DNA from: a virus
Lineage: Duplodnaviria > Heunggongvirae > Uroviricota > Caudoviricetes
Virus record (IMG/VR): IMGVR_UViG_3300033144_005510
DNA: 64,000 bases
Strand: one strand, 5' to 3'
This document shows, piece after piece, positions 20,651-56,534 of this stretch. The notes below the pieces were generated by a model, which did no database searches, was not told the DNA's origin, and saw nothing but the letters and a program-made list of their open reading frames with translations. Position 1 is the first letter of the stretch. Each line of letters starts with the position of its first letter. The position numbers were made by a program, and so were the translations under genes.

Positions 20651-21702
20651 CGAATATACACCTTGTTAATAACGTTACTTATAAAGGTAATCCATTTTTG
20701 TTGGAAATCTACCATATTATAATTCGACCTCATATTTTGTTTTGCATTATCAGATAAAAAATTAATTAATTCTGAATTAAACATTAGGCCAAAAACCTGT
20801 TCTTGTAATTGGTCTAGGCTTTTAAACAATAATGCATCATGATTATGATTAAAAATAAGGCTAGACCAAACGCAGTCATTTGTTATTATAGCACATCCAT
20901 TAGCAGCTGCCAACATAGGAATAATAGGAGCGTGAGATGCTTCGCTATTAATCGCAATGCATATTTTATTATTATTCATAACCTTTAATAAATCTCTAAA
21001 CGTTGGGCAGAATGTAGGAGTGTTATTTGGATTTACTTCGATGGACAGTGGAGTCGTTGTATAAATATTTAGATTTGGGATTTTTTGATTTACTTTATTT
21101 ATAAAATCTACAGTTTCAGGATTAAGAACATCGCAAATCAGCGCAATGTTTTCTCTTTCGTCAAAATTATTTTGGTTGTTTAAAAACGGTATACCATAAG
21201 GTATGGTTACAGCACGGGGATGGTTTTCTAATCCCCAACGTGATTTTATTACATCATGACCAAAAACAGAATAAACATTTTCATCTTTAATGCAAGTGCT
21301 ATTTATTTTGTCTTCAATCATGTGCGTGTTAATAAGATCCACATCTGCATGAACATTTACAATTAATGGAACATGCCAACCAGTTGAAATCATACTGGAG
21401 TTAGTATTATTTTGTTCCGTTAATATATCATTACAAATAATGCAATCAACATCAACTCTATCTGGAAAACTAGTGGCATAATTTTCTGTACGACCCAATG
21501 CTTCATTAGGCAATTCGTTATAATTGTTAGGAATTGCAATATTAAAAGGGTACTTTTTGAAAAAACTAACAAAATGGTTAATTACAGGAATTGTTCCAAA
21601 TATATTTTCAAACAGGCCATCGAAGGGATAATAAATTGTATTAACCTCTTGGCCAGTTTTTCTTAAAGCGGAATGCATCACCTGATCTACATAATTTTTC
21701 AT
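20647..21702 (-). CDS. putative glycosyltransferase (GT-B-like C-terminal domain)
   Basis: EASHAPIIPMLAAANGCAII resembles the E-x7-E donor-binding motif region. Confidence 0.4.
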   Translation of the reverse strand: MKNYVDQVMHSALRKTGQEVNTIYYPFDGLFENIFGTIPVINHFVSFFKKYPFNIAIPNNYNELPNEALGRTENYATSFPDRVDVDCIICNDILTEQNNTNSSMISTGWHVPLIVNVHADVDLINTHMIEDKINSTCIKDENVYSVFGHDVIKSRWGLENHPRAVTIPYGIPFLNNQNNFDERENIALICDVLNPETVDFINKVNQKIPNLNIYTTTPLSIEVNPNNTPTFCPTFRDLLKVMNNNKICIAINSEASHAPIIPMLAAANGCAIITNDCVWSSLIFNHNHDALLFKSLDQLQEQVFGLMFNSELINFLSDNAKQNMRSNYNMVDFQQKWITFISNVINKVYIR

Positions 21703-22859
21703 AATACTTCCAACATTTCTTTGGCTACGTTTTCGTATGAATAAAGAGGTAAAATATTTTCACGAGAATGTTTTTTTATTTCTTCTGATTCGTCCTTATC
21801 TTTATTTTCTTCATATGCTTCTCTCATTTTTTCTTTTAAATCACAGACGCTTATTTGGTGCCAGTAATTTCTATTATTATAAAAATTATGGAGAGGTACA
21901 TATTCTTCTGGAGAAATCATTGGGGTTTTATAGCTTTTAATTGGTTTAGAATTATGTTCATTTAAAAATTGTGATGATCCAGCATTCTCATTGGCTATAA
22001 CTTTTGATCCGTGCATAATAGCGTCAAAAGCTGGAATACAAAAACCCTCTCCCCTAGATGGAACAACAAGACAATCCAAAACTGAATGTAGTTCGTAAAG
22101 TTTTTTTTGAGGCATGTGTTCAGGTATTATTAATTCTTTTTTATAAGGCATATTCTGGTAGTAATACATCTTTATTTCTTTTTTTATATTAGCTATTTTT
22201 TCTTTAATTATACTTAAGGTTTGTTGTTCTGATTTACCAAAATGATGTGTTTTTATAACTAAAGAAACATTCTCACTTGGATTAAATTCTCCATGGAATG
22301 CTTTGATTAAATCGTCTAGATTTTTTCTCCAAATAGATTCTCCAATAAAATAAAAATTATAAGTGCTTTCTAAAACCTTGAACTGTTCTCCAAATTCTAT
22401 ATTTGTTTTGTGGCCATATTTTTCAATATTACAAGGCAGCTTAATTACAGATATAGATTGTTTAATATCACTTTCTTCTAGCATTCTTTTTTCAAATTCT
22501 GTCGATACCCATATCTCATCCATTAAGCTAAGGGGATAATATAATTCGGTGTGCTTAATTGTATTTTCCAAATGAAGTAGTGATATATTTTTAACACCTC
22601 CATAATGCTTAGTCATATGAGGAAGACAGTGTTGAATGATTATATCATAACTATCATAGCTTTTATTTTCCAAACCTGAAAATTCTTTAGAATCTTCAAA
22701 AGAAGAGATGTCGTCATTATAAAACATATCCCTGTTTGTATATAATGGTCTAGCAGCTATATTATAACCAGTTAGCTTTAAAGCCCTAAGATATTCCTTA
22801 GAAGCATTGCCCCAACCGTCTTTTTGTCTATAAGGACCGCAAAAAAGTATATTTTTCAT
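21699..22859 (-). CDS. glycosyltransferase, GT4-like
   Basis: VPSRGEGFCIPAFDAIMHGSKVI is an E-x7-E-type motif of retaining GT-B enzymes. Confidence 0.55.
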   Translation of the reverse strand: MKNILFCGPYRQKDGWGNASKEYLRALKLTGYNIAARPLYTNRDMFYNDDISSFEDSKEFSGLENKSYDSYDIIIQHCLPHMTKHYGGVKNISLLHLENTIKHTELYYPLSLMDEIWVSTEFEKRMLEESDIKQSISVIKLPCNIEKYGHKTNIEFGEQFKVLESTYNFYFIGESIWRKNLDDLIKAFHGEFNPSENVSLVIKTHHFGKSEQQTLSIIKEKIANIKKEIKMYYYQNMPYKKELIIPEHMPQKKLYELHSVLDCLVVPSRGEGFCIPAFDAIMHGSKVIANENAGSSQFLNEHNSKPIKSYKTPMISPEEYVPLHNFYNNRNYWHQISVCDLKEKMREAYEENKDKDESEEIKKHSRENILPLYSYENVAKEMLEVL

Positions 22860-24616
22860 TAATTATTAACTTTCTGTACATGATCATATAACTTATTAGC
22901 ATAATCTATGTAATCTTGCTGTAACAATGAATTTGGATTTACTCTTCCTGATTCACAATCAATAGAGTTTCTATGTATGGCTGTGCATAGATCAATAAAC
23001 ATTTGCCTTGAAAAGGCAGATCTGTCGGTGATGCGATGTCGATACATAATTCGTAAAGTCATTATTTTTTCAAAATATGTATTTAAAAGCTCTGGCTTTT
23101 GCGCAATATTTACAATAACCCATTTGCAAAACTCAGAATCGGATAAATTATCAGGAACAGTTTCTGGAATTTTTGAAAAAGTTTTTGGAGGAGTCTCTTC
23201 CCATTTTCCTTGAAGGCCAGTTAATTCCGCATTATCAATATAATCTTCCCATACTTTAGCTGTATTATCCCAATTCCAATGTTTTTCAGTTGCTATTCTA
23301 GAAGATATACCCAGATGCCTTTTTGCAGACTGTGGAAGTAATGCAAAGTCATAAAGATTTTTTCCGAAAACTTCATTATCAGGAATCAATCTTTTTGCAT
23401 GAGTCCCGTTGTCCCAAAACATTGTTTTAATAGGTATTTCAATTCCTTTGGAATAATTTAAAATATCTTCCATAGCAGAATAATTAGGAGTCATAACTGG
23501 AATTCCACAGGCAGCAGCTTCTACTTGAGGCATTCCAAATCCTTCGCAAACAGAATATTGAATATACGCATCATACGTATTTATAATACGTGCTAGATTA
23601 GCATCACTTGTTGCCATGCTTGTAGAAGGAAAACTACACATAGATCCGCACTTACATATGGGGAAATTACTAAAAAGCCCCATTGTCGGATTCTTACATT
23701 TTGAACAAACCTGTGTCATCAACACATTATTACTAATACCCATATCTCTAATAAATTGTGGTATGTCCCAACCTGAGTCGGGATAACCACAATGAATATG
23801 TAAATAACTTCTTTTTGCTATTTCTGCGTTACCGTTTTCGTAACACAGGTCTAGGTATTTTTTAAATGCTTCGAAAAGATCTGGATAGAGTTTTCTCATT
23901 TGGTTACGCATAATAGTACCAAAAATGATCATTTCTTTATCAAGACCAAAGTGTTCCCTACATTTGTCCTTCTGTAAAGGCTTAAACTGATTAATATCAA
24001 CGCCTGGAGGAGCTGAAGAAAAAACTTTAATTTTTTCAGACTGTTCTTCAAGAACTCTTTTTCCATATTCAGTATAGACTAAGATTCCATCAGCTGATTC
24101 AAAATCATATATAAACTCTGGTTTTTGTGGTGCAGAATCAACAGTTGGCATTAATACAAGATGAAAAAAATCACGCAGTTGAGAATTTACCACGGCTTTT
24201 ATCATCCAGGGATCTCTTACATCAATAACAAAATCTGGCTTAAAGTCTAAACAAACACGTTCAAATCTCCATCTGCCAAAAGGGGCATCTGCTGTAGTAT
24301 CATATATATCTTTTTGCTTTTTTTGCTCCTCCAGTTTTTTCTGTTCTGCTGTAGTTAGTCTGTTATTAGGCGCTGCTAATTGCGACTTTTTTATCATGGA
24401 GGTATCGGGCATATTTCCATAATATTTCCATTTTAATTCATTTACTGGAAGTCTTGCGTCAGCCATTTCTCCATAACAACCTAGTTCTGCTAACTCATAT
24501 TTTCCAGTAGCAGCTAGTCTTTTAAGAATTTCTTTTCCATATTTAGCAAATCCAGTATATAGAAAATGGGCCTCATTTACTATGAGTATTCTCTTTTTTC
24601 TTTTTTTCATTTCCAT
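22859..24616 (-). CDS. glycosyltransferase, GT4-like, 585 aa
   Basis: YSVCEGFGMPQVEAAACGIPVMT is an E-x7-E motif. Confidence 0.5.
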   Translation of the reverse strand: MEMKKRKKRILIVNEAHFLYTGFAKYGKEILKRLAATGKYELAELGCYGEMADARLPVNELKWKYYGNMPDTSMIKKSQLAAPNNRLTTAEQKKLEEQKKQKDIYDTTADAPFGRWRFERVCLDFKPDFVIDVRDPWMIKAVVNSQLRDFFHLVLMPTVDSAPQKPEFIYDFESADGILVYTEYGKRVLEEQSEKIKVFSSAPPGVDINQFKPLQKDKCREHFGLDKEMIIFGTIMRNQMRKLYPDLFEAFKKYLDLCYENGNAEIAKRSYLHIHCGYPDSGWDIPQFIRDMGISNNVLMTQVCSKCKNPTMGLFSNFPICKCGSMCSFPSTSMATSDANLARIINTYDAYIQYSVCEGFGMPQVEAAACGIPVMTPNYSAMEDILNYSKGIEIPIKTMFWDNGTHAKRLIPDNEVFGKNLYDFALLPQSAKRHLGISSRIATEKHWNWDNTAKVWEDYIDNAELTGLQGKWEETPPKTFSKIPETVPDNLSDSEFCKWVIVNIAQKPELLNTYFEKIMTLRIMYRHRITDRSAFSRQMFIDLCTAIHRNSIDCESGRVNPNSLLQQDYIDYANKLYDHVQKVNN

Positions 24617-25640: not shown

Positions 25641-25668
25641 AATATACTCTAAAAACTGAATATGTCAA
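25641..25668 (-). promoter_or_regulatory. sigma-70-like promoter (TTGACA-16-TATATT) reading into element A and ssb
   Basis: Minus-strand TTGACA (plus 25663-25668) and TATATT (plus 25641-25646), 16-nt spacer. Confidence 0.4.
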
Positions 25669-27368
25669 GTCAATTGCCACATTTTTTTAACAATCAAACT
25701 ATCGCTATTTCTTGATCTATCTCCACTAACAAGAACAGTATTTTCCGCAACACAAATTCCTTTACTGCGAATTTCATCCCAGTCATTTGGAAATATTACG
25801 CAGTCCATAGAGCATTCGCCGTCACTAACAGTAACAAAAGCCATTTCCTGTTCATTGTTTCTAGTAATATGGGTTTTTATTTCGTCGATTTGACAAGCAA
25901 TAAAAATTCCGCTAGTTTTTTCCTTATGTTTCTGAAATTCTAAAATAGTGCAATTTGCTTGATCCGCATTTTTGCAACCATCTAGAATTGAAGCAGTAAT
26001 GGAAATTCCGAGTCTGGCTTCTTCTACCCTAGCAATCCAATCGGGAGCATCCCTTAAAGCATAAGGCGGATTTACAACTAAGCTTAAAATGTCTTTCATT
26101 TTCTGTATTCTGTTTTTATTAGCACACGGACCCTTTACTTTTTTATCAGGGTTATCATGTCGTTTTAATGATTCTTCCAATATTTGTTTTAGCGAACTGG
26201 CATTTTTTATATTCTGCTTAATCCACGCATGTTCTTTATTTGTTAATTTGGAATATTGTTCATAATCAAATAACATTTGCGTTCTTGCTGTTTTTAAATA
26301 GTCTAAAGCTCCTGCTTCAATCATACCAGCTACTACAGTGCTACCTACATCTTGCGAAAAATATACAAGAAAATCGGTCCATGACCAATCTTTGCGAGGG
26401 CGATTAATTGCTGTTTCTGCAAGATAAATTGCATTAGCAACTTTTACGACAGCGCTTTTCCCGATTCCTTTAATATTAGAAAGACCGAAATAAATTTTGT
26501 CATCATAAGGATTATATGTTGGTTGTCCTGGTACAGAATTCGAGATACGTTTAAAATGTTCATTGGCGTATCTAAAATCTGGGGGGTAGATATTAATACC
26601 CATGACTCTAGCATTAGCAACTAGTAATTTGATTTCATCAAACTTCTTCTGCTTATCTTTGGCATACCATAGATATGAAGTAAAGAATGATGCTGGAAAA
26701 TGTGCTTTTGCATAAGCAGATAAATAACCATTCATTGCATAAGATACTGAGTGGCTTTTATTAAAAGAATATCGTTGTGATTTTTCGATCTGATCCCACA
26801 GCTCTTGGGCTTCTTCTTTATTTAGAATTCCTTGTTTTTCACACCCTTCAAGAAACTCATTTTCAAGCTTGGCCATAATGTCGGCCTTTTTCTTACCAAT
26901 AGCTTTACGAAGTACATCAGCTTGTTGGAGATCAAAGCCAGCAATATCCTGGGCAATTCTCATTGCCTGCTCCTGGTAAATCATTTCACCAAAGGTTGGC
27001 GAAAGAATAGGTTCTAGAGCAGGATGTGAGATTGTAACTTCTTCTAGACCGTTTTTTCTATCCATGTAATGCTCGGCAATATTCTTACCGTCACGAATAG
27101 ATTGGATACATCCAGGTCTTAGGATTGCAGATAGAGCTGCAAGCTGCTCAATATTTTCTGGTTTGAGCTTTTTAGCGTATTGTTGGCCGAATCGTGTTTC
27201 TAGTTGGAATACGCCTTTGGTATTACCTTCACCAATTAAATCCCAAGTTCTTTGGCAATTAAGAGGAAGATCAAAATCCCACTTTAGCTTGACTGGCGGC
27301 CCTTCTTCCTCAACTTCAAATTTGCAGCCACACTCAAAATATGCATAACCATTCTTAATCTCGATCAT
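25665..27368 (-). CDS. dnaE: DNA polymerase III alpha subunit, C-terminal fragment (fingers / HhH region)
   Basis: KGVFQLETRFGQQYAKKLKPENIEQLAALSAILRPG matches the DnaE finger motif (GVFQLES...ALxRPGP). Confidence 0.8.
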   Translation of the reverse strand: MIEIKNGYAYFECGCKFEVEEEGPPVKLKWDFDLPLNCQRTWDLIGEGNTKGVFQLETRFGQQYAKKLKPENIEQLAALSAILRPGCIQSIRDGKNIAEHYMDRKNGLEEVTISHPALEPILSPTFGEMIYQEQAMRIAQDIAGFDLQQADVLRKAIGKKKADIMAKLENEFLEGCEKQGILNKEEAQELWDQIEKSQRYSFNKSHSVSYAMNGYLSAYAKAHFPASFFTSYLWYAKDKQKKFDEIKLLVANARVMGINIYPPDFRYANEHFKRISNSVPGQPTYNPYDDKIYFGLSNIKGIGKSAVVKVANAIYLAETAINRPRKDWSWTDFLVYFSQDVGSTVVAGMIEAGALDYLKTARTQMLFDYEQYSKLTNKEHAWIKQNIKNASSLKQILEESLKRHDNPDKKVKGPCANKNRIQKMKDILSLVVNPPYALRDAPDWIARVEEARLGISITASILDGCKNADQANCTILEFQKHKEKTSGIFIACQIDEIKTHITRNNEQEMAFVTVSDGECSMDCVIFPNDWDEIRSKGICVAENTVLVSGDRSRNSDSLIVKKMWQLT

Positions 27369-27442
27369 ATTACAAAAGTCCTACAACAAAAAATAACCAA
27401 ATAAAATAAAAGGTATACTTCTATTATACTCTATTTTTCAAA

Positions 27443-28159
27443 TTATGCCATAGCATTTTTGAATTTTACTTTAGAAGATGTTCGTCTATGCAATCTCAAG
27501 AATTTTTGGATTACCAGTGCTTCATCTCGAACATCGTTTAAAGCATCATGAGCGCCATGACCAGACATACCAAAGAATTTTCTCAATTCGTCCATACTGT
27601 ATGATTTAGGCTCTGGCAGATTTTCAAACCAGTAGAAAGCCATTTCCATAATATCAATACAATCTCTTGGATTAAAGATTTTTTGCTCTTCTTCTTTAGT
27701 AATATATCCGAACCGCTCGCAAAGCCGATCTGCAATCACGTTATCGAAGCGTCTAATATTAATGCCTGCTCGAATAGGTGCGGTAAATCGGCTTCTACGA
27801 GACTGGTTCTTATTATAAATTAAAAGGTAATTTGTGAAATCATCCCAGACTTGCTTTTGTTCAGGAGCATCCAACCATGTTTGGTAAATGCCTTGATCAG
27901 CTTTATCGCGATCTTCCTGAGTTAAGTCGTCATAATTCTCTGTGTAGTTCTTGGCGTGCCAACGAATGGTATCACAATGTTTTTCAAAATAATCTTTTTC
28001 ATCTATACCTTGAGGCCTCATCCAAGAACAAAATTCTGAATTGTCAACAATCTCTAAAGTAATTGGATTGATCATGCAAGCCGCAATTTGTACTGGCTCG
28101 CATTTTTTAGGATTACTTCCATCAGTTTCAAAATCGTATACACAAACAAAGTTCTTCAC
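27443..28159 (-). CDS. DEDDh 3'-5' exonuclease (DnaQ/epsilon-like). Likely GTG start at 28159, not the track's ATG at 28282.
   Basis: Exo I VCVYDFETDG and Exo III HGAHDALNDVRDEA. AAGGAA RBS 7 nt before GTG. The track's K-rich N-terminus comes from the antisense frame of a GAAGAAGCT repeat. Confidence 0.65.
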   Translation of the reverse strand: MKNFVCVYDFETDGSNPKKCEPVQIAACMINPITLEIVDNSEFCSWMRPQGIDEKDYFEKHCDTIRWHAKNYTENYDDLTQEDRDKADQGIYQTWLDAPEQKQVWDDFTNYLLIYNKNQSRRSRFTAPIRAGINIRRFDNVIADRLCERFGYITKEEEQKIFNPRDCIDIMEMAFYWFENLPEPKSYSMDELRKFFGMSGHGAHDALNDVRDEALVIQKFLRLHRRTSSKVKFKNAMA

Positions 28160-28178
28160 AATATATTCCTTATTAAAT

Positions 28179-28847
28179 TTATTCTTCTTCTTTTTCTTCC
28201 TCGGTTTCAGCTTCTTCAGCTTCTTCAGCTTCTTCAGCTTGGATTTTTCCAGCAACCATTTCTTTAATTTCTTCTTGCACATCCTTAAAAACGCCTAAAA
28301 AATATTCTTCATCTTTTTCTTCAGGTTCAAGTGTTTCTTCAGTAAGTATATTCACTGATGGTTCGTTTGGCAACATTTCACCAATGTGAGATTCAGAATC
28401 TCCTGATATTACTTTCGTACTCCAATCAAGTGACAATCTATCTTTAGGATCATTTGTATTTTGTGCTACTACAAACAACCCCTGTCTTTTTTTTGTTACT
28501 ACGTACTCAGATAATCCGTTGTTTTCGTAATAAAAAATGCCACCTAATTCAAGGTCGCCAGCAGATGTGTCGTAATTCATTATAATTTCTTTCTTTAATT
28601 TTAAAGGTTCGGATTCAGGTTCAGGCTCTGGATCTTCTTCTACCAAAATTACTTCAGTTGATTCATCCATCATAGTGAAATTTTGCTTTGTCGTAACCCA
28701 TGAGCAATTATATCCAGGTGAACAACAGCTTTTATTACGCTTTTTCAGCTTTGTAAAAACAGTATCCTCTTTAACATCGTTTAATATTAGATTTTTCCAG
28801 TCAACGACATAGAATTCGTCGTTTATATCAAGCTCTTGAAATTTCAT
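28179..28847 (-). CDS. hypothetical acidic protein (222 aa) with AEE-repeat C-terminus; carries the IKEMVAGKIQ motif shared with the giant virion protein
   Basis: ORF between the dnaE halves. C-terminal (AEE)n is encoded by the simple repeat at 28207-28240. Confidence 0.45.
   Translation of the reverse strand: MKFQELDINDEFYVVDWKNLILNDVKEDTVFTKLKKRNKSCCSPGYNCSWVTTKQNFTMMDESTEVILVEEDPEPEPESEPLKLKKEIIMNYDTSAGDLELGGIFYYENNGLSEYVVTKKRQGLFVVAQNTNDPKDRLSLDWSTKVISGDSESHIGEMLPNEPSVNILTEETLEPEEKDEEYFLGVFKDVQEEIKEMVAGKIQAEEAEEAEEAETEEEKEEE
28207..28240. repeat. simple sequence repeat (CTTCTTCAG)n
   Basis: cttcttcagcttcttcagcttcttcagc. Encodes (AEE)n in the minus frame of ORF 28179..28847 and a spurious K-rich N-terminus in another frame. 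Confidence 0.8.
28239..28268 (-). repeat. 30-nt exact repeat, copy 2 (inverted)
   Basis: Reverse complement of 5933-5962. Confidence 0.8.
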
Positions 28848-30744
28848 TTATTTCTCCTAAGCATAAATCTTGTTGAACACCCATAGCTTTATCTAGAGCA
28901 GTAATTCCTAAAACGTCAAATTTAATTCCGCCGACGTTTTCCAAGTCTTCCATTTCTAAACCAGCTATTTGTCTTCCGCTTTCTGTATCTAAAACCATGG
29001 GACACATATTCGCCAATGGTTCTGGAGCAATAACAACCCCAGCAGCATGTTTAGATTGAACTGTTTTAGTACCTTCTAATCTAATGGCTTGTTCAAATCT
29101 AGGTGCTAATGGGCCTGTTAATTTTCCGCTATCTTCAATTCTACACCATTCAGAAAGTTTATCAGGAGTATTTTCCAAACACCATTTAATGATTGAAGAT
29201 TCTCCCTGATCCTCTTTCATCTTCTGTAATTCATCCGCAATCTTTTGTTCTTCAATAATATTTTTAGTGATTTTATTCATTTCTTCAAAAGGAATTCCGC
29301 CATAAGCACGCAAAACATCCTTAATTGCCCCACGTCCCTTCATGGTCGTAAATGTAATCATTTGGCCGACATTCTGCTCTCCATACGTATCTCTCATATA
29401 CTGAATAACGTGTTCGCGAGCATATTTGGGAACATCCATATCTACATCTGGCATAGATACTCTGCCTCCCGTGTTACGACCAGCATTATAAAATCTTTCA
29501 AAAATTAAGTCAAAAGGCATAGGATCAATTGAAGTAATACCCAAAAGATAAGATACTAGACAACCAGCAGCGGAACCTCGTCCAGGTCCAGGCAACCATC
29601 CGCTTTTTCGCACGAAATCTATAATATCTGCAACAATTAAGAAATAACTAGATAGCCCTGCTCCTTGCAGAACCGCCATCTCTTTCTCGATTCTCTGAAC
29701 ATATTCTGGATGCTTCTCTTTGGGTACTACGTTTTGAATCTTCTGCCTCCAACCTTCTCGACACAAATGACGTAAATACTCCTCTGGATTCATCCCGTCT
29801 GGACAGGGGAAATTTGGAAGCATTGGTGGACGTAGAATGTTTTTGTATTCCTCTACCCTGGCTGCAAAAAGATTTGTGTTGTCCAGTTCCTCTGCCGTAT
29901 GCCATTGACGCATCTCCTCATATGATGGAATATGGTATTGATTAGATTTGAAAAATGTTCCAAGTCCAAATTCAGGCCTATTAGCCTGTTGGATAGTGGT
30001 TTTCATATTAGAACATAGTAGAATTCTTTGGTCTTGTGCGTCTTCTTTGCGAGCATAATGAGCATCAGGAGTAGCAACGCATGGAATTCCAGTATCTTTA
30101 CTAATTTCTCGAATACAATCAGCAACAATCTTTTGAGTTGGGTTTAGCACACAATCCATTAACTGAACTTCTAAAAAGAAATTATCTTTACCAAATGTAT
30201 CACTAAACCATCTTGCTAAACGGGTGCCTTCTGTTTTCCAGTGATTGGAAATCTCACCATCTTCATCAAATAGAACGTTGGCCATATTAGATCCTAAATG
30301 ACCACTAAAAGCCATTAAGTTTCCTTTTTGTGCAAATGGTTCTATTTGTTTTAAACTTAGGCGTGGTTTATGATAGAAATGATCCTTTTGGTTAGCCATA
30401 GAGACCATTTGTACTAAATCTCTCCATCCTTGATCATTGCGAGCAATTACGCACAAATGAGCCAATTTCCTGTTACGATCATTCTTCACATCGGCATTTT
30501 CTTTACAGATGTAAAACTCACATCCTAAAAGAGGCTTTTTACCAGACCTATTCATCTGTGATAGAAACTGAATGTGCCCACTCATAGAACCATGGTCTGT
30601 CAGAGCAGAACCTTCAGAACCTATTTCTTCACAACGAGAAGAGATATCTTCTGGTTTGCTAAGACCGTCGAGTAGGCTGTAGTGAGAATGAACGTGTAAC
30701 GGAAAATATTTACTCATTAATAACCACCGTAAATCTAGTATCAA
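28828..30744 (-). CDS. dnaE: DNA polymerase III alpha subunit, N-terminal fragment (PHP + palm)
   Basis: PHP motif LHVHSHYSLLDG and palm GPGRGSAAGCLVSYLLGITSIDPM...PDVDMD, closely matching E. coli DnaE. Confidence 0.85.
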   Translation of the reverse strand: MILDLRWLLMSKYFPLHVHSHYSLLDGLSKPEDISSRCEEIGSEGSALTDHGSMSGHIQFLSQMNRSGKKPLLGCEFYICKENADVKNDRNRKLAHLCVIARNDQGWRDLVQMVSMANQKDHFYHKPRLSLKQIEPFAQKGNLMAFSGHLGSNMANVLFDEDGEISNHWKTEGTRLARWFSDTFGKDNFFLEVQLMDCVLNPTQKIVADCIREISKDTGIPCVATPDAHYARKEDAQDQRILLCSNMKTTIQQANRPEFGLGTFFKSNQYHIPSYEEMRQWHTAEELDNTNLFAARVEEYKNILRPPMLPNFPCPDGMNPEEYLRHLCREGWRQKIQNVVPKEKHPEYVQRIEKEMAVLQGAGLSSYFLIVADIIDFVRKSGWLPGPGRGSAAGCLVSYLLGITSIDPMPFDLIFERFYNAGRNTGGRVSMPDVDMDVPKYAREHVIQYMRDTYGEQNVGQMITFTTMKGRGAIKDVLRAYGGIPFEEMNKITKNIIEEQKIADELQKMKEDQGESSIIKWCLENTPDKLSEWCRIEDSGKLTGPLAPRFEQAIRLEGTKTVQSKHAAGVVIAPEPLANMCPMVLDTESGRQIAGLEMEDLENVGGIKFDVLGITALDKAMGVQQDLCLGEINEISRA

Positions 30745-40482: not shown

Positions 40483-40824
40483 TTATTCTAATTCACTTCT
40501 ATGTACGATTCTATCTCCTACTTGAACCCAGGATGGTTTACCATCGCTTTGCCGATACTCGTAATGCTTAGAATGAATTTCTGCTTTTTCATCTTCGCTC
40601 ATACTAGATGCCTGTTTATCAGCCCAAGACCCCAAGGTATTCGGCATATGGAAAGCTCCATAACCAAATAGTTGGTAAAAAGTTTTTTTCTTCTTACAAT
40701 GTGGGCACGACTTTGGTTCTTTTTCAGATTTCTCTGAAATTAAACAGGTAATGCTGAAGACTTCTCCACAGCCACCGTCTTCTGGATCACACAAGTATTC
40801 ATAGGTTGGCATTTGATTATACAC
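40483..40824 (-). CDS. FmdB-family zinc-ribbon protein
   Basis: MPTYEYLC...GC...CPHC is the FmdB/zinc-ribbon signature. Confidence 0.45.
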   Translation of the reverse strand: MYNQMPTYEYLCDPEDGGCGEVFSITCLISEKSEKEPKSCPHCKKKKTFYQLFGYGAFHMPNTLGSWADKQASSMSEDEKAEIHSKHYEYRQSDGKPSWVQVGDRIVHRSELE

Positions 40825-40850
40825 CGTTTTTTAAGTTAAAAATAAGGGTA

Positions 40851-42545: not shown

Positions 42546-43262
42546 TCACTCATTTATTTTACCAGTTTCCTTGAACTTGTAAAGGTTGCTTTTCCATTTA
42601 TCTATAATTTTACCAACCAAAGGATTTCTCTGATTGTCCTTATTGTCCAAGTGTACTACTGAGATTTCATCATCATTCTCGAATAAAGCACAAGCATAGG
42701 CAAATGCACCCTGATTATTCTTTAATAGGTCAGACTGAGAGGCATCACCCGTTAAAACCATTTTCGACTGCATTCCAAATCTAGTCAGCAACATTTCCAT
42801 TTGGTTGAAATCCAGATTCTGACATTCGTCGCAGACAATAAAGGAATCTTTAAAAGTTCTGCCCCTCATAAACCCAATGGGGGCAATTTCTAAAATGCCC
42901 TCATTCTGCCATGCAACAATTTCACTATTAGAAGCATATTCGGATAATTCATCTAGACAAGGGCGAACAAACGGGTTCATTTTCTTTTCAAGTTCCCCTG
43001 GTAAAAACCCAATCTGTTCACCAGCCTCTACAACAGGTCTAGCGATAATAATTCGCTGAACCTCACCTTTTCTTAAACTACTAACAGCCATACCAACTGC
43101 CAAGTGAGTTTTGCCTGTTCCTGCTGGACCTTGACAAATTACAATGTCCTTTGCAAGAATTTCTTTGATATAATGCCTTTGCCCAGGAGTTTTAGCAGAA
43201 GGCGAACGGTGCTTTGGTTGTTTTTCAGTTTTTCTAGACAATGCTGCAAGCTCCCCCTGCAC
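42546..43262 (-). CDS. phoH: PhoH-family ATPase
   Basis: VICQGPAGTGKTHLAVGMAV Walker A and overall PhoH-like layout. Confidence 0.75.
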   Translation of the reverse strand: MQGELAALSRKTEKQPKHRSPSAKTPGQRHYIKEILAKDIVICQGPAGTGKTHLAVGMAVSSLRKGEVQRIIIARPVVEAGEQIGFLPGELEKKMNPFVRPCLDELSEYASNSEIVAWQNEGILEIAPIGFMRGRTFKDSFIVCDECQNLDFNQMEMLLTRFGMQSKMVLTGDASQSDLLKNNQGAFAYACALFENDDEISVVHLDNKDNQRNPLVGKIIDKWKSNLYKFKETGKINE

Positions 43263-45567
43263 ATGAGATTTCTTGTTCTGGAGTTGTATTATCTTCGTAT
43301 TCTACAAGTGAGGTATAGTCCACAGATTCAAACGTTCTTCTAAGATCGTACCATCGTTTATAATTAAATACATCTTTCAAACAGTATGTAAGCCTTTGAT
43401 AATCACTATCAAAATACTTATCGGCAAATCTTCTAGACTTTTCCACAAATTCTTTTCTAGCCGCTGCAATTTTTAGATCATCAGACTTATCCATATTAAT
43501 ATCAAAATCATTTGACGGATTATAGTCTGGATTAGTAATTGCCAAACATGCTGTATACAACTGACCATTGAATGCTCTAATGGCTAATTCAATAAGGCCA
43601 GAAGTCCACAAAGCTGCCTCGCCATATTCTTTAGCGATCTGTCGAGAAGTGTAGACAGAACAGTAAGGAGCTTGAGGATAATCTTTATCACCACTGGTTC
43701 CAAGTAATGTGATACCAGTAAAATACTTTCTATTCTTATAGATAAAGTCAACTACCTCGTCCCACTCTTCTTCTGTGACTGTTACCGTATTTGAAACATT
43801 ATTCTCAATAAACGGCATAACACATTTATCTTTTCTTCTTCCTGCCATCACCCAGTTTTGCTGAGTGCTTTTAACCAATTTCAACATTTCTACTGCTGGC
43901 AATTGATTTTTGGTTTTAGCCCCGTCTGGAACTTCAATTGGGAAGTAGATAACATCATCGGTATTTGTAGCAGAATTTAGTGATGGTTCGCAAGCAGTTG
44001 GGTTTACAGACTTAAAGTATTGATAAACGTTCTCATCTACGTTAGCTTGTACTGTTCTAAGATAACGTACATAGTGATGTGAGTGAATACCAGTAGCCAA
44101 AGTACCCAAAATAAGGCTTCCAGTACCTTCTGGTTTCAAACATGTTCCACGAGCAAACAAGTTAATTCCGATTTTGGATGCGATATCTTTATTAACTTTC
44201 TTTACTAGAGAAGCAGCTTCACGTTGGACATCAGGATCTAGAACAACTTCATAATTATCCATCATTCCAGTCATCGAAACGCCCAGTAGAGCCTCTCGTC
44301 TGAAGATGTTCTCAGAAGTCTCTCCAAGATATTCTAGATTTGTAAAGCCAGCCTGTAGTGTTCCTACAATAGTCGCGGCCTTTACATTGTCCATAAACCA
44401 TGCTACTTTCTCTTCTTTCGTACTACCTCTTAGATTTGCACAATTAGTAGTTGAAAGATTGCAGCCTTGCCATCCAGATTTTAGACCAATCTTTTCGGGA
44501 TCACAGGTAATTGCTTCAGTTGAATGCTTTTCTTTCCATTTGTTGAACTTCTTTTCATCAACAATATCATAAGTAAAGAAGCCGATCTCAACACAAGGAT
44601 TGGGAACCATTTCTGGAGAATCGGACCAGTAAAATCCAGGTTCTCCAAATTGCTTAACACAATCAATTAGTTTTTCAAACTCTTCCTTCGTAGTTTGATT
44701 TCTAACAAGTAAAGCAGAAATATTAGCCCTACTTCTTTGAGGGTTTTCTGTCCACCAACTTCCAGTTTTAGATTGAGCCATTTCCATATCGTCTGCTGAA
44801 AACAAGGCGATGGTTGCAGACCGTCTGACACCACCACTTAAAACTGCGTCAGCAGTATGCATACAAATATCAAAAGCGTCGATTGGTCGAAGTCTTTTTT
44901 GACCACTATGAGTACAACGATTTAAGATATCTCTAATTTTATCCAGGGATTGATTAAGGCCTTCTGGACCAGGAGCTTTACCAGTTCCACTAGAAAGAGG
45001 AGCGCCTTTTGGTCTAATTTCAGAATAATCAAATTCTACTTCAACGTTAAGCCATTCCTCAAACTTTGGATCGGTTGCAACGCCAAGATAAGTTGTAAGC
45101 AAGATTCCAAGCGCGTCTGACCAACCTTCAATACTGTCAGGAATAGTATGTGTTACAACTTCTTTTGGAGAAAAATTCAACTCTGGAAGCTTTGCTACAT
45201 GATGTTTCTGAACTGAAAAACCAGCTCCACAGCCACACAGTAGAAGCCAAAAATATTCTTGGAAGAATCTGGGCCTATCACAATATGAAGCCACACAGTT
45301 GTAGATTCTGGCATTCTTTTTAAATGCAGGCTTACCGCCAAACTGAAGTGCTCGTTGAGAACCTAACATACGCTTCTTCTGCATCATGTCGTAGGCCCAG
45401 TTGATTTCTTCTTCTACGTCCTTGTCTTCATATTGAGTTAGCATCATATCCCTAACTCGATTCACAGCCTCATTCCATGTCTCTCGTCTGTTTTTATCTT
45501 CGATCCATCGTGCATACTTAGAAGTAAAAATATAATCTTGCAAAGCTTTAATTGTTGAAGTTGACAC
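43234..45567 (-). CDS. ribonucleotide reductase large subunit (probably class II/NrdJ-type; no beta subunit seen in window)
   Basis: Active-site NPCVEI and C-terminal redox Cys pair ...SCAGGACSIV. 777 aa. Confidence 0.65.
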   Translation of the reverse strand: MSTSTIKALQDYIFTSKYARWIEDKNRRETWNEAVNRVRDMMLTQYEDKDVEEEINWAYDMMQKKRMLGSQRALQFGGKPAFKKNARIYNCVASYCDRPRFFQEYFWLLLCGCGAGFSVQKHHVAKLPELNFSPKEVVTHTIPDSIEGWSDALGILLTTYLGVATDPKFEEWLNVEVEFDYSEIRPKGAPLSSGTGKAPGPEGLNQSLDKIRDILNRCTHSGQKRLRPIDAFDICMHTADAVLSGGVRRSATIALFSADDMEMAQSKTGSWWTENPQRSRANISALLVRNQTTKEEFEKLIDCVKQFGEPGFYWSDSPEMVPNPCVEIGFFTYDIVDEKKFNKWKEKHSTEAITCDPEKIGLKSGWQGCNLSTTNCANLRGSTKEEKVAWFMDNVKAATIVGTLQAGFTNLEYLGETSENIFRREALLGVSMTGMMDNYEVVLDPDVQREAASLVKKVNKDIASKIGINLFARGTCLKPEGTGSLILGTLATGIHSHHYVRYLRTVQANVDENVYQYFKSVNPTACEPSLNSATNTDDVIYFPIEVPDGAKTKNQLPAVEMLKLVKSTQQNWVMAGRRKDKCVMPFIENNVSNTVTVTEEEWDEVVDFIYKNRKYFTGITLLGTSGDKDYPQAPYCSVYTSRQIAKEYGEAALWTSGLIELAIRAFNGQLYTACLAITNPDYNPSNDFDINMDKSDDLKIAAARKEFVEKSRRFADKYFDSDYQRLTYCLKDVFNYKRWYDLRRTFESVDYTSLVEYEDNTTPEQEISCAGGACSIV

Positions 45568-45578
45568 AGTTTATTTCC

Positions 45579-45884
45579 CTATTCTTTCTCTTTGTCATCA
45601 CCATAGATTTCACGAAGAATCTTCTGGCCCTGTTCATCACTAGGCAAAGATTCTTTCTTTTGATTGTTATAACGCTGTTTCTTATTGTCGACGTTTTGTT
45701 TCTTTTTACGTCGCTTAGGTCGGCCTTGATGCCGATTGTAGAATTCCCACAATTTATGAGGATCGTCTGTTTTAAAAGTCTTCTTTTTGCCCGTGGGATT
45801 TCCTTCAGAATCTCTTACTAAAATCTCAATTTCATAAGGTTTTTCATCTGATGCTAATCTAACAAAATTTAATTCTTCTGACAT
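45579..45884 (-). CDS. hypothetical basic protein, 101 aa
   Basis: AGGAG RBS before ATG at 45884. Confidence 0.35.
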   Translation of the reverse strand: MSEELNFVRLASDEKPYEIEILVRDSEGNPTGKKKTFKTDDPHKLWEFYNRHQGRPKRRKKKQNVDNKKQRYNNQKKESLPSDEQGQKILREIYGDDKEKE

Positions 45885-45906
45885 TTCCTAATTCTCCTAA
45901 AATGGT

Positions 45907-45944
45907 AAAAAAAACCCACTATATACACAGATATACATAGCGGG
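45907..45944 (-). terminator. intrinsic terminator (CCCGCTAT-loop-ATAGTGGG + U8) on minus strand
   Basis: 8-bp stem with one mismatch, 14-nt loop, followed on the minus strand by TTTTTTTT. Lies ~22 nt before the 45884 start. Confidence 0.55.
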
Positions 45945-46150
45945 TATTATTTTTTAAAAGCGACACGGTTGTGTTTCGAAAGGCTAACAAAGGGTTCGTT
46001 TTCAACTGTTTAGTGAGTTTTAAACCGACATCTAGCAGGTTGCTTTATCTATATTGCACCACCAAACGAAACTATAACTGAGCTGGGTTGTGCCGCTTTA
46101 ACTTAACGTAGCTAATTAAGGTTTTAGCTAACTGTTCTTTAAGCCCAACT
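45945..46150 (-). ncRNA. candidate ~200-nt non-coding transcript bracketed by promoter and terminator
   Basis: No ORF longer than 9 codons. Upstream TTTACA-17-TATAAT on the minus strand and terminator at 45907-45944. Internal TTAGCTAA palindromic hairpin. Confidence 0.35.
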
Positions 46151-46157
46151 CATTCAT

Positions 46158-46186
46158 ATTATACACCGATGGGGCCAATCTGTAAA
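46158..46186 (-). promoter_or_regulatory. near-consensus sigma-70 promoter TTTACA-17-TATAAT (contains GGTGTATAAT motif)
   Basis: Minus-strand -35 at plus 46181-46186 and -10 at plus 46158-46163. Starts 8 nt after the dCMP deaminase stop. Confidence 0.5.
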
Positions 46187-46193
46187 GTGGTAT

Positions 46194-46691
46194 TTAGTTA
46201 GATTTTTCAATAATATTTAATGCCCTATCTACAGAGCCTGTATCAATTTTTATTTCTTTTATTTGTATTTTTCCAAATTTCAATAGATCTGAATACACTT
46301 TTCGTTGATGATCGGTGTAGTTTTCCATCATTGTGGCTTTACCTTTTGTTACAACAAAATCAATAACCCCATTTTGATAACAGGCTTTTAGGCATTCTAG
46401 GCACGGATGTCCATTAACATAGCAGGTAGCCCCATGTAGGGGCACCGTAGCATTATAAATAGCGTTAGCTTCGCTGTGGATCATCCAGTCGTATTTTAAA
46501 GGTCTGGTATTAGGCAGAATATCATCTGGCATATTTCTAGGAAAAGAATTATAACCTGTTGATAATATTTTTCTATCCCTAACCATAACACAGCCGCATT
46601 GCCATTGTGCGTCCTGGGATCTGGTGGCTACTAGCATAGCCTGGGTCATAAAATAATCGTCCCAATCGGGTATGTCAATATACTCGTGCAT
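46194..46691 (-). CDS. dCMP deaminase
   Basis: Zinc-binding HSEANAI ... HPCLECLK (H-x-E ... PC-x-x-C). Confidence 0.7.
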   Translation of the reverse strand: MHEYIDIPDWDDYFMTQAMLVATRSQDAQWQCGCVMVRDRKILSTGYNSFPRNMPDDILPNTRPLKYDWMIHSEANAIYNATVPLHGATCYVNGHPCLECLKACYQNGVIDFVVTKGKATMMENYTDHQRKVYSDLLKFGKIQIKEIKIDTGSVDRALNIIEKSN

Positions 46692-51216: not shown

Positions 51217-51292
51217 TTTGCTACCTTATCCAAATAGTAGCCTACATATATCCTGTTTGTCCTTCGTTTAAGATCCTTATTTCGTAGTTATA

Positions 51293-51967
51293 TTATACAC
51301 CAACAAGACAGTTTTCCAGTGCTTTGATTTTATGAAATCTTGCACCGAAAAGGCCAGTATCTCTAGTAGCTTTTAAATGGTTAGGCAGAAATAAGCTGGC
51401 ATTTGCTATTGCGTTTACATCAAAATCGTTTTGCGCCATGTTACAAAGTATTAAGTTGTCATGAATGTCGTCAATGTATTGTCCAGTGGCGCAAAATATA
51501 AACTCGACGCCCGTACACTTTACCAACTCCACCATTTGTCGAAACTGTTTTCCGTCCTCCAATTTTCTATGATCAACCATAACTCTAAGTGTAACATTTT
51601 TATCATCTGCTAAACTCTTAATTGAGTTGATGTCTTGCATAAAATCGACTTCGCGCCCATTTCTAAACAGCACACAATTTGCTACTAAATCTAAAGCATT
51701 GGCTCCTTTATGAATTGCTTTAGTGGCGGCGTGAATTCTAAGACTGTTAGACGATCTTCCTTCGGGCCAATCTATTGGACATGATAAAATCATGCCTTCG
51801 GGTATTAAGTCTGCAATAGCTGTTATATGTGCTGCTGGAACAGAAATTCCATGAACACCTAAATCTATTGCTTTAAATACATTAGACTTTATATTTTCAG
51901 TAAGCACCTCATCGTAACAGGCGTATTCTAAGATTGTTGTGCTATTCTTCTTGTTCTGTGTATCCAT
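51293..51967 (-). CDS. hypothetical protein, 224 aa
   Basis: ORF only. Confidence 0.3.
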   Translation of the reverse strand: MDTQNKKNSTTILEYACYDEVLTENIKSNVFKAIDLGVHGISVPAAHITAIADLIPEGMILSCPIDWPEGRSSNSLRIHAATKAIHKGANALDLVANCVLFRNGREVDFMQDINSIKSLADDKNVTLRVMVDHRKLEDGKQFRQMVELVKCTGVEFIFCATGQYIDDIHDNLILCNMAQNDFDVNAIANASLFLPNHLKATRDTGLFGARFHKIKALENCLVGV

Positions 51968-53958: not shown

Positions 53959-54613
53959 TACTTATTATACTCCGAAAAAAGTCGTCATTCACACCGCTTT
54001 TTCTAATATTTGAAAGGGATCTATCTATCAGAGTGTATATTCCTTGTCTGCTTACGCCATTTTTCTTTGCGATAGAGGCGATTGATTGCCCTTCAAAAAA
54101 GTGCATTTGTATGTATTTTTTAGCATTTTTTGGAATATTAGCTTCTTTTATTAAATTTTTCAGTTTTTCAATTTTTTCTTTCTGAAACATAGTATCTTCA
54201 ACAGTCGGCGATTTGTCAACAAGACGATCTAGAAAAGAAGTTGTTGATTGAGATTTGTCTGAATTTATAAGACGATTTAGTGATAATGTATTTCTTTTAT
54301 TATTTTTACAACTTCTTGTTAAATAACACCTGATAGCAAATAGGATTCTTTCTTTTCTAAATCCGTGTAAATTGCCTTTGCCGTTAAATGCCCAGTCGGC
54401 CATCATTGCAGCATGAGCGATATTAGAGACGGCATCTTCATTTCCTAGCATTTCTTTAGCAAGGTTTGGTCTAAACTTATTAGCATGGCGTGAAATACAT
54501 TTTTTAGCAATGGTGATGTATTCATCTAGTGAAGCAAATTCTTTGTTTGGTTTTTGAGGAAGCTTTATTTTTTTATCATGAATTCCAATAATATCAATAT
54601 TATTTTTTGCCAT
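53951..54613 (-). CDS. sigma-factor-like protein (region-4 HTH), 220 aa
   Basis: C-terminal MHFFEGQSIASIAKKNGVSRQGIYTLIDRSLSNIRK resembles sigma-70 region 4. Confidence 0.45.
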   Translation of the reverse strand: MAKNNIDIIGIHDKKIKLPQKPNKEFASLDEYITIAKKCISRHANKFRPNLAKEMLGNEDAVSNIAHAAMMADWAFNGKGNLHGFRKERILFAIRCYLTRSCKNNKRNTLSLNRLINSDKSQSTTSFLDRLVDKSPTVEDTMFQKEKIEKLKNLIKEANIPKNAKKYIQMHFFEGQSIASIAKKNGVSRQGIYTLIDRSLSNIRKSGVNDDFFRSIISND

Positions 54614-55382: not shown

Positions 55383-56534
55383 CTAGCTGTTTTTAATTAG
55401 GATTTCTTCCATCTTTTTATAAGTATTATCTAATGTGTATGTTTTAGAAGTTTTAACACCTTCTTCATTTAGAATATATCCATTCTCCTGTTTTTTCTGG
55501 TGGACTTTTTTCATGAGTTCGGCAGCCTGTTCAATTTGATTAAGGCCAATGTCTGCCCAATTGCCTGGAGTCAATAGATTATTAAACCATTTACCGTCAT
55601 ATGCAGTTTCAAGGTTTTCTATATCTATTAAATGAGAATTTGATTCATTACAAAATTCTGTATGCCCAGAATAATTTGTTACAATAACATCTTTTCCTAA
55701 TCCCATTAATTCAAGAACTCCAAGATTCCACGCCTCCCCTCTACTTGGGAATATTCCGCAATCACATTGGTTTAATATTTTAATATGGTCTTCATGAGTG
55801 GTTTCCCATGGGAAAATCTTAATCTTCCCAGCCTTGCCCATTGGACTATCCAAATACATGGATTCCCAGCTTTTGGTTTCCCATACGCCTTCAACATAAG
55901 GATTATGGCCAGTCATCCATAGTTCTACATTATCGTCCACATTGAACGCTTTGTTAAATATTTTATATAAAACATCATGGCCTTTACGCACTTCCCATTT
56001 TCCAGAATTCAAAAAGATTGTGGGTTTTTTTCTTTCTTCTTCTAGATTTAAAAATTTTGGATTAAAAACATGAGAATTTAAATAATTAGAATCTACACCA
56101 AGAGGAACTATATTAATATTAGTGGTGATGCCGTTGTTTTCACAAACGCCCTTTGCCCATTCACATGTGACGCAAAGTTCATCAACATAATTCATAGAAT
56201 GTTTTTCATAAGGGTATAAATGATCTACTTCAAAAAATGTATAAGCAACATTTCTGCCTTTTCCAATACTATTATGTAAGTCCCATTGGTGCCAAATTGT
56301 TAAATTAACAGCATCATAATGGAACATCATTTCTCTTCTAGCTTTTTGTATCAATTCATTTTGAATATCGCCTTCCATTTGAAGGCTGAAAGCACTGCTA
56401 CCTCTTTTGGGAACGTCTAAAAATACATCCCAATCATTAGCCATCAATCGCTTTAATATTTGATAACCTGTCCAACCATACCCACTTGTATTTGGCAGAC
56501 AGAAAAGGTTTACTTTTTTAGTATCGGCTTCCAT
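55383..56534 (-). CDS. glycosyltransferase, GT4-like
   Basis: FPSRGEAWNLGVLELMGLGKDVI is an E-x7-E motif. Confidence 0.55.
   Translation of the reverse strand: MEADTKKVNLFCLPNTSGYGWTGYQILKRLMANDWDVFLDVPKRGSSAFSLQMEGDIQNELIQKARREMMFHYDAVNLTIWHQWDLHNSIGKGRNVAYTFFEVDHLYPYEKHSMNYVDELCVTCEWAKGVCENNGITTNINIVPLGVDSNYLNSHVFNPKFLNLEEERKKPTIFLNSGKWEVRKGHDVLYKIFNKAFNVDDNVELWMTGHNPYVEGVWETKSWESMYLDSPMGKAGKIKIFPWETTHEDHIKILNQCDCGIFPSRGEAWNLGVLELMGLGKDVIVTNYSGHTEFCNESNSHLIDIENLETAYDGKWFNNLLTPGNWADIGLNQIEQAAELMKKVHQKKQENGYILNEEGVKTSKTYTLDNTYKKMEEILIKNS

Follow-up and report, generated by a model that had tools for sequence, protein, structure and literature searches.

Ribonucleotide reductase (RNR) is the gate to DNA precursors, and its genes are among the commonest auxiliary genes of marine phages; to our knowledge, how phages time or tune RNR expression is largely unknown. 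RNR operons of all classes are controlled by the repressor protein NrdR, which responds to ATP and dATP and binds tandem 16-bp DNA palindromes. Riboswitches for 2'-deoxyguanosine (2'-dG-I and 2'-dG-II) have reportedly been found upstream of RNR genes in Mesoplasma florum and in metagenomes, and cobalamin riboswitches are said to lie upstream of nrd genes. Riboswitches built as an H-type pseudoknot with an embedded hairpin are represented by preQ1-II and also by SAM-II and SAM-V. Here we describe an RNA element in a noncoding gap of a 64,000-nt stretch of viral DNA (Caudoviricetes; IMG/VR record IMGVR_UViG_3300033144_005510), hereafter the window, which means this stretch at its full length. 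The gap is located on the minus strand at 45885–46193, between the open reading frame (ORF) of a dCMP deaminase and that of a 101-aa protein ahead of an RNR gene, and its length of 309 nt agrees with that given in an earlier note on this DNA. The element is almost certainly a real, conserved and structured RNA, and it is probably the cis-regulatory leader of RNR operons. With a little less assurance, we favor the reading of the gap as a 5' leader of the phage RNR operon that acts in cis as a riboswitch-like transcription attenuator.

Conserved structure of the RNA element

Homologs were collected by three routes, namely by nhmmer, by DNA patterns derived from shared blocks and scanned over viral and metagenome collections, and through the neighboring small protein. 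The homologous element was found in 36 further loci of viral and metagenome contigs (numbered with the prefix L), which makes 37 loci including the window and 29 distinct core sequences after merging of identical ones. The IMG/VR contigs were reached via the RNR protein, whereby nhmmer aligned the gap to L001/L003 with E = 1e-11, and the element in L002 was recognized by eye. An independent set (L026–L045) consists of contigs collected via homologs of the 101-aa protein. Although the deaminases of the window and L001 share only 39% protein identity, the DNA of the gap contains identical blocks. Judging by the record names, several members originate from TARA and other marine samples.

The order of parts was the same in every member: the 5' strand of helix P1, junction J1/2, hairpin P2, the 5' strand of a long-range helix (LRa), the 3' strand of P1, a middle domain, and the 3' strand of the long-range helix (LRb). 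In the window, where all parts of the element are located on the minus strand, the P1 5' strand UGAGUUGGG (46144–46152) forms the predicted 5' end of the transcript and pairs with the 3' strand CCCAGCUCA (46079–46087), which begins 2 nt past LRa. Across the family, the 5' strand starts 4–9 nt past the -10 box, at the expected transcription start, and the 3' strand 1–4 nt past LRa. The sequence of P1 is not conserved, as seen in the pairs GAGUUGGG/CCCAGCUC, GCUGGGA/UCUCAGC, GUGGGGCA/UGCUCCGC and GGCUAGAC/GUCUGGCU. Pairs were counted on an alignment (A4) in which helix segments excised by our own parse were joined with constant spacers and fitted to the structure; on this alignment, all 8 counted pairs of P1 showed changes on both sides, with 100% of the cells paired among the 29 distinct sequences. 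The covariation of the whole structure was 0.555 compared to 0.17 in shuffles, none of 500 shuffles reached 0.555, and slid registers were only about 40% paired. In a position-constrained shuffle test, confined to the initial 24 nt of the transcript and 14 nt past the LRa block, 35 of the 37 sequences had no more than 16 of 300 shuffles as good (mean z = -3.2), the exceptions being L028 with a broken and L025 with a weak P1. L028 and L029 are near-identical contigs, but a cluster of G-residue substitutions destroys P1 in the former and not in the latter, either because the copy is decaying or because low coverage led to an error of assembly.

P1 is followed by J1/2, an A-rich single strand (CUUAAAG, 46137–46143) with the family consensus AUAAAG, semi-conserved in most members, and by the P2 hairpin (46105–46136). 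The core of P2 is the perfect palindromic hairpin TTAGCTAA-N8-TTAGCTA at 46131–46109, which had already been recognized in the earlier note. A hairpin occupies this position in every member; its sequence is variable, its length is about 15–85 nt, its last base abuts the LRa block, and its closing pairs vary between A-U, G-C and G-U in the fitted register. LRa (AAAGCGGCAC, 46090–46099) is present in a single copy in the window and pairs with the complementary LRb (GUGUCGCUUU, 45957–45966). Its family form, UAAAGCGRCAC, is nearly invariant, and LRb (family form GUGUCGCUU) lies 40–130 nt downstream, with an arm spacing of 38–129 nt. The resulting helix has 9–10 bp, with 9 robust pairs, one compensatory and one alternating between A-U and G-U. 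The compensatory change, from C-G to A-U, was found in L031, where LRa AAGAGACAC pairs with LRb GUGUCUCUU; this locus belongs to the protein-anchored set and thus was not selected for the LRa and LRb blocks. Between P1 and LRb lies the middle domain (45967–46078), a long irregular hairpin in loop 3 of the pseudoknot proposed below, with blocks that are kept in the window-type relatives. Its conserved AUAAAGCAAC (46048–46039) pairs with GUUGAAAAC (46006–45998) through CAAC:GUUG, and an outer helix was read by eye in most members. The domain is 85–118 nt long in most members and reduced to a hairpin of 30–50 nt in L030, L031 and L049, and so it appears dispensable for the core.

LRa is enclosed by P1 but LRb is not, and the two helices therefore cross. 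If formed together, they would make an H-type pseudoknot with a hairpin in each loop, in which P1 is stem 1 and the long-range helix stem 2, with 1–4 nt between them on the continuous strand; alternatively, P1 and the long-range helix might be mutually exclusive states. The window RNA folds with z = -2.8 relative to shuffles. The comparative alignment proposed in the earlier note thus did reveal structural covariation, and the features expected of riboswitches in general were present at this level, namely a conserved, structured candidate aptamer in the 5' leader, with covariation and with P1 at the predicted transcription start.

Complementarity of P1 that is kept while its sequence changes completely is a signature of RNA, and it argues against readings in which the gap has no RNA function and represents a decayed gene, a replication origin, a group I intron remnant or DNA operator sites. 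LRa and LRb are indeed a conserved inverted repeat at the DNA level and could in principle be two half-sites of an operator, but the spacing between the arms varies from 38 to 129 nt. A decayed gene, which according to the earlier note would be indicated by relatives encoding a protein here, was rejected, as no relative encodes a protein at the position of the gap and no conserved ORF was found. The two side suggestions of that note found no support either. A replication origin was rejected because the region contains only short two-copy repeats, without iterons, and the cumulative GC skew declines monotonically across it without a change; a group I intron remnant was rejected because there was no match to the Rfam model Intron_gpI, which recognizes the P3–P7 catalytic core, at E ≤ 10 and the element is intergenic with its own promoter. 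Altogether, the absence of an RNA function is very improbable.

Association with ribonucleotide reductase genes

In each of the 32 members for which 437 nt or more of sequence is available downstream, an RNR gene starts 60–750 nt past LRb. The downstream enzymes are of three types: monomeric class II RNR, as in the window; NrdJ-like RNR with a TSCPD domain (L057, L049); and a class I alpha subunit with an ATP-cone followed by the class I small subunit (L056, L063, L073). The upstream gene varies, being a dCMP deaminase, a Cys-rich protein of 62–80 aa, a 57-aa membrane protein, a 224-aa protein or a thioredoxin-like protein. As for riboswitches in general, the element is therefore consistently associated with the genes of one pathway. 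Because RNR is always directly downstream while the upstream gene changes, a cis-acting leader is favored over a small RNA (sRNA) acting in trans, for which a position not tied to one downstream gene would be expected; here, the linkage to RNR is strict.

In the window and many relatives, the first gene past the element encodes a basic protein of 65–110 aa with a K/R-rich tail. This raises the idea of a leader that depends on a protein (the small basic protein, through autoregulation like that of lambda N/nut or of ribosomal-protein leaders, RNR itself or a host factor) or that acts directly on RNA polymerase as a processive antiterminator, in the manner of the put sites of phage HK022. The motif UAAAG recurs before three helices and could represent repeated binding sites; moreover, a put-like mechanism requires no antiterminator helix, which fits the failed searches for one (see below). 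Nevertheless, the small protein occurs between the RNA and RNR only in some lineages and is missing before RNR in L056, L057, L061, L063, L068, L083 and L085, while L039 and L004 keep the protein without the RNA. Since so many members lack it, the small protein is unlikely to be a universal effector, and its AlphaFold model gave no significant fold match. Apart from RNR, itself of three unrelated architectures, no protein partner is constant. Hence, dependence on a protein effector or a put-like action is considered unlikely, and the riboswitch-like cis leader remains the preferred interpretation.

The small protein family itself (45579–45884 in the window and homologs P0001–P0023) frequently precedes phage RNR genes. 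It has the motif FEIxLxVRDxxGxPTG, followed by the K/R-rich tail, and no match in Pfam or PHROGs; the AlphaFold model (pLDDT, the predicted local distance difference test score, of 73) shows a beta-hairpin and helices and has no significant fold match in the PDB. Another small protein, Cys-rich, of 62–80 aa, with the motif CKxCxGRGY and without a Pfam match, is encoded just upstream of the cluster of deaminase, RNA and RNR, preceding the deaminase or the RNA in L002 (3320–3508), L055, L056, L057, L063, L070 and L085. The RNR ORF downstream of the element in L077 (3343–6876) has 1,177 aa and is about 400 aa longer than in relatives; those of L011 and L012 are similarly long (1,111 and 1,061 aa). 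The length of these three ORFs is consistent with an intein or another insertion.

Promoter and terminator

The near-consensus promoter TTTACA-17-TATAAT proposed in the earlier note for the minus strand was recovered by the consensus scan, with 11 of 12 positions matched, a score tied for the best on the minus strand in a 12-kb scan. Its -35 hexamer TTTACA (46186–46181) begins 7 nt past the stop codon of the deaminase and is separated by a 17-nt spacer from the -10 hexamer TATAAT (46163–46158), within the 16–18 nt required of a sigma-70-type promoter; the latter is part of an extended -10 box, GGTGTATAAT (46158–46167). The -35 form TTTAC(A/G) was also present in L021, L025, L026 and L027. There are exactly four exact copies of GGTGTATAAT on the coding strand of the window, with recurrences ahead of genes at 40816–40825, 51292–51301, 53964–53973 and 63680–63689 (minus strand), and since each stands ahead of a gene, the box looks like a genuine promoter type of this phage, as far as sequence can tell. 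At several copies, an ATG follows only 3–5 nt past the box, which suggests leaderless mRNAs. Among the homologous loci, 34 of 37 have a GTAT-type -10 box within a few nucleotides of P1, ending 4–9 nt before it. In L039, which lacks the RNA, the cluster begins with the small-protein gene, and a GTGTATAAT box (around 1990–2003) is located 3 nt ahead of its start codon. This suggests a promoter of the operon itself, with the RNA inserted between promoter and first gene. P1 and the stop codon of the preceding thioredoxin-like gene overlap in L049, where no promoter is recognizable. In four loci (L055, L057, L063, L085), the palindrome AAAAGTTGnnnnnCAACTTTT stands about 25 nt ahead of the -10 box and could represent either an operator or the terminator of upstream transcription.

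At the other end, the element is followed by an A-rich linker (45946–45956) of near-constant length, with the semi-conserved sequence AAAAUUAC / AAUAAUA, and by an intrinsic terminator (45906–45945, minus strand) with the expected G+C-rich hairpin and U-tract. The hairpin is a 14-bp stem-loop (45945–45914) with a folding energy of -17.8 kcal/mol, followed by U7-8. In nearly all members, the terminator stem begins 18–22 nt past the start of LRb. A G+C-rich hairpin with a U-tract was present in 29 of 35 distinct 3' tails; L070 has the hairpin with a weak U-tract, and five tails (L017, L060, L072–74) have no separate terminator. In these five, LRb runs directly into U6-7, and the long-range helix is thus itself shaped like a terminator stem. 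Of the 29 tails, 13 carry a 4-mer that copies part of LRa (CGAC or ACAC) at the 5' foot of their terminator, compared to 9% expected, albeit the tails are not phylogenetically independent; with such a copy, free LRb could pair there and weaken the base of the terminator. Only in the window and its closest relative, L026, does the terminator contain in its 3' half (minus strand ATCTGTGTATA) a copy of the -10 region of the promoter, ATCGGTGTATA; the two form an 11-nt direct repeat, 91% identical, at 45922–45932 and 46160–46170.

The earlier note had placed the terminator about 22 nt before the next ribosome-binding site. The hairpin and U-tract stood up to reanalysis, but the distance applies to the start codon: the Shine-Dalgarno sequence AGGAG of the first gene of the operon (45898–45894, minus strand) follows 8 nt past the U-tract, and its ATG (45884–45882) about 22 nt past it. 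In the members read, the ribosome-binding site of the next gene lies about 10–30 nt further on. As this leaves no room for a promoter between the terminator and the ribosome-binding site, transcription of RNR must cross the element. Together with the placement of the promoter in L039 and the lack of a recognizable own promoter in L049, this favors a cis leader. The earlier note had proposed an sRNA. What holds of this proposal is that a promoter and a terminator enclose a discrete, structured RNA of about 250 nt; a trans-acting role is the part that probably does not.

A stable, abundant RNA of about 250 nt standing alone and acting in trans, for instance by binding a host or phage protein or another RNA, with RNR expressed only by leaky read-through, would account well for a near-consensus promoter combined with a strong terminator, for a compact conserved fold of the kind known from stable RNAs, and for the lack of a conserved antiterminator. 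It accounts poorly for the position directly upstream of three types of RNR in every testable member while the upstream neighbor changes, for the five members without a separate terminator, for L049, and for the lack of any further promoter within the 22 nt ahead of the start codon of the RNR operon. Such an independent RNA is improbable, and the cis-acting leader is retained below.

Proposed mechanism and its evaluation

According to the proposed mechanism, transcription would start at the phage promoter with the GGTGTATAAT box, and the nascent RNA would fold into an H-type pseudoknot made of P1 with the embedded P2, the long-range helix and the variable hairpin domain between its arms. About 10 nt after closure of the pseudoknot, RNA polymerase would reach the intrinsic terminator just before the ribosome-binding site, and read-through would decide whether the small protein, RNR and PhoH are expressed. 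Termination would be favored when the long-range helix forms, a coupling suggested by the five members in which this helix with a U-run replaces the terminator. An effector stabilizing or destabilizing the pseudoknot would then set the level of read-through. A small molecule tied to deoxynucleotide supply is the favored candidate, because RNR of any class, including the B12-independent class I, is the only constant partner. By analogy with preQ1-II and SAM-II, the near-invariant nucleotides of LRa and LRb and those of J1/2 might form the binding pocket.

That the element senses a metabolite at all, i.e., is a riboswitch in the strict sense, is possible but doubtful. Somewhat more tentative is the specific version of a new phage-specific riboswitch class sensing a deoxynucleoside tri- or diphosphate (dNTP/dNDP, e.g., dATP) or a deoxynucleoside through a ligand-stabilized pseudoknot and a terminator. 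Such a class, in an equally speculative extension, would turn phage RNR (class I, dimeric or monomeric class II) off or on and would thus be an RNA counterpart of NrdR.

Several points weigh against the attenuator reading or reduce the force of the evidence for it. Most members were found by patterns requiring the LRa and LRb blocks, which inflates apparent conservation; the protein-anchored set L026–L045 is free of this bias, and the same blocks are present in it. The members are related, so the cell counts exceed the number of independent events. The strands of the long-range helix are almost invariant, and the support for it is mostly complementarity plus a single compensatory event. The registers of P1 and P2 were fitted by us, and plain MAFFT with RNAalifold on the natural 5' domains returned no pairs and no consensus structure, because the helices are too variable for sequence alignment; a full-length MAFFT alignment (A2) misaligned several members. 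Concerning the switch, no consistent antiterminator was found, as the best partners of the 5' half of the terminator differ between members, and a mini-hairpin of LRb with the terminator foot was no more stable than in shuffles. Moreover, a strong terminator with 14 bp and U7-8 would also suit a stable stand-alone RNA. Finally, what the sequences show is the conservation, the covariation, the topology, the consensus of promoter and terminator and the exclusive link with RNR; that the element is transcribed, that termination is conditional, and that there is a ligand of the kind proposed are inferred from them.

That the element accompanies RNR genes of three enzyme classes in many lineages of phages speaks for a common signal, which the phage reads directly on the mRNA. 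If this signal is a deoxynucleotide, the element would be a natural dNTP- or dNDP-sensing RNA, relevant to riboswitch biology, to the metabolic takeover by phages and to the design of biosensors; if the effector is a protein, it would still provide a compact, testable model of pseudoknot-coupled termination. In addition, the element is a useful marker for the annotation of RNR operons in viromes.

Distribution and database searches

Searches for the element outside the family were negative. Blastn of the region against 50,697 records of cultured phages gave no match, and neither the 101-aa protein nor an exact 25-mer taken from the RNA found one in IMG/VR. The three-block pattern, run over 185,579 bacterial and archaeal genomes, gave only chance matches in GC-rich coding DNA and thus neither a host clue nor a bacterial copy. 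Chance matches of the patterns were also discarded among the collected loci (L016/L024, L018, L019, L046–48, L062/69, L066, L075, L089, L090). With Rfam 15, the whole window yielded only three tRNAs at the gathering threshold, the region 45500–46600 only noise at E ≤ 10 (microRNA and snoRNA models at 15–19 bits), and twelve member loci only tRNAs elsewhere at the gathering threshold. No RNR-associated phage motif was found by full-text searches of the literature or in three large catalogs of candidate structured RNAs. Because there was neither an Rfam match nor a described motif in the literature searched, the element is filed as an undescribed class of riboswitch-like transcription attenuator.

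Gene neighborhood and other features of the window

The window is part of a large phage genome with a split family-A DNA polymerase, a DnaB-like helicase, a primase, a UvsX-like recombinase and PhoH, together with three tRNAs and two giant ORFs. On the minus strand, the dCMP deaminase ORF (46194–46691; Pfam dCMP_cyt_deam_1, E = 5e-18) is followed, past the gap, by the putatively controlled operon (42546–45884). The latter consists of the gene for the 101-aa basic protein (45579–45884; without a Pfam or PHROGs match), which is its first gene, that for the class II-type RNR of 777 aa (43234–45567; recognized by Pfam and PHROGs, with RNR_Alpha and an RNR-II insertion domain) and that for PhoH (42546–43262; Pfam and PHROGs). 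The gene order of a 101-aa-type protein, RNR and PhoH is shared with L001, L002, L025, L032 and L077.

The earlier note had described the gap as free of ORFs longer than 9 codons and as the longest noncoding stretch of the window. Indeed, no credible or conserved ORF was found; if alternative starts are allowed, though, a TTG ORF of 28 aa (minus strand, 45919–46005) and a GTG ORF of 36 aa (plus strand, 45971–46081) appear, and the terminator contains an ATG ORF of 13 codons. None of these is conserved among the relatives, and the 28-aa ORF is shortened to 19 aa in L026. The gap is the longest ORF-free stretch of the coding strand, except for the tRNA cluster at 60.1–60.5 kb. A 13-nt inverted repeat (45856–45868 / 46192–46204) flanks the gap; it was treated as a chance occurrence, since it is not kept in L026 (read by eye).

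Elsewhere in the window, the DNA polymerase gene (minus strand, 25665–30744) is split into an N-terminal part (28828–30744; positions 41–605 of the phrog_405 profile) and a C-terminal part (25665–27368; positions 625–1053), with ORFs of 279 and 222 aa between the halves (27443–28282 and 28179–28847). A transposase-like ORF (phrog_506, 58815–60068, minus strand) adjoins the cluster of three tRNAs, Arg-TCT, Asp-GTC and Ile-TAT (region 58815–60397). The giant ORFs of 1,958 and 2,223 aa are located on the plus strand at 146–6022 and 7661–14332. Three glycosyltransferase-like ORFs are present in the window; minus-strand coordinates listed with the giant ORFs are 21699–24616 and 55383–56534. The strand switch near 14.5 kb coincides with the sole change in the sign of the GC skew in the window.

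Comparison with known systems

The element resembles the 2'-dG riboswitches in being a cis leader before RNR genes that ends in an intrinsic terminator, and feedback from a deoxynucleotide-related metabolite would be a plausible logic in both. However, theirs is the purine-riboswitch fold, with a three-way junction and kissing loops, while here an H-type pseudoknot with other conserved nucleotides is predicted. No match to the purine or 2'-dG riboswitches was found in Rfam at E ≤ 10, and P1 crosses the long-range helix. With the cobalamin riboswitches of nrd genes it shares the position as an RNA leader on RNR genes, and the RNR of the window is of the B12-dependent type; in contrast to them, with their core of a B12 box and a four-way junction, it has no B12 box and no Rfam cobalamin match in either the window or twelve member loci. 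Its presence before B12-independent class I RNR operons also argues against B12 as the signal.

The put sites of phage HK022 and the nut sites of lambda are likewise structured RNAs, transcribed just past a phage promoter and followed by terminators. The RNA site of lambda precedes the gene of a small basic protein, as in the window, although this protein is absent from many members of the present family. Put consists of two adjacent, simple stem-loops that bind RNA polymerase and suppress downstream terminators, and nut of a 15-nt hairpin, and, unlike the element, neither is a pseudoknot or tied to RNR. Like NrdR, the element would be a dedicated regulator of RNR operons across classes; unlike the DNA sites of NrdR, it shows covariation of the RNA type and a variable spacing of its arms.

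The strand order of the element (stem 1, loop 1, stem 2, stem 1, loop 3 with a hairpin, stem 2) is the same as in preQ1-II, SAM-II and SAM-V, and so is the placement of an A-rich strand suited to a helix groove and the concentration of conserved nucleotides in stem 2. It differs from them in its size (150–250 nt compared to 50–80 nt), in having hairpins in both loops and in the lack of sequence similarity and of an Rfam match. Moreover, the element would control a terminator, whereas those riboswitches sequester the Shine-Dalgarno sequence. Overall, by analogy, the closest functional counterparts appear to be the 2'-dG riboswitches and the cobalamin riboswitches of nrd genes, and the closest topological ones the H-type pseudoknot riboswitches with embedded hairpins.

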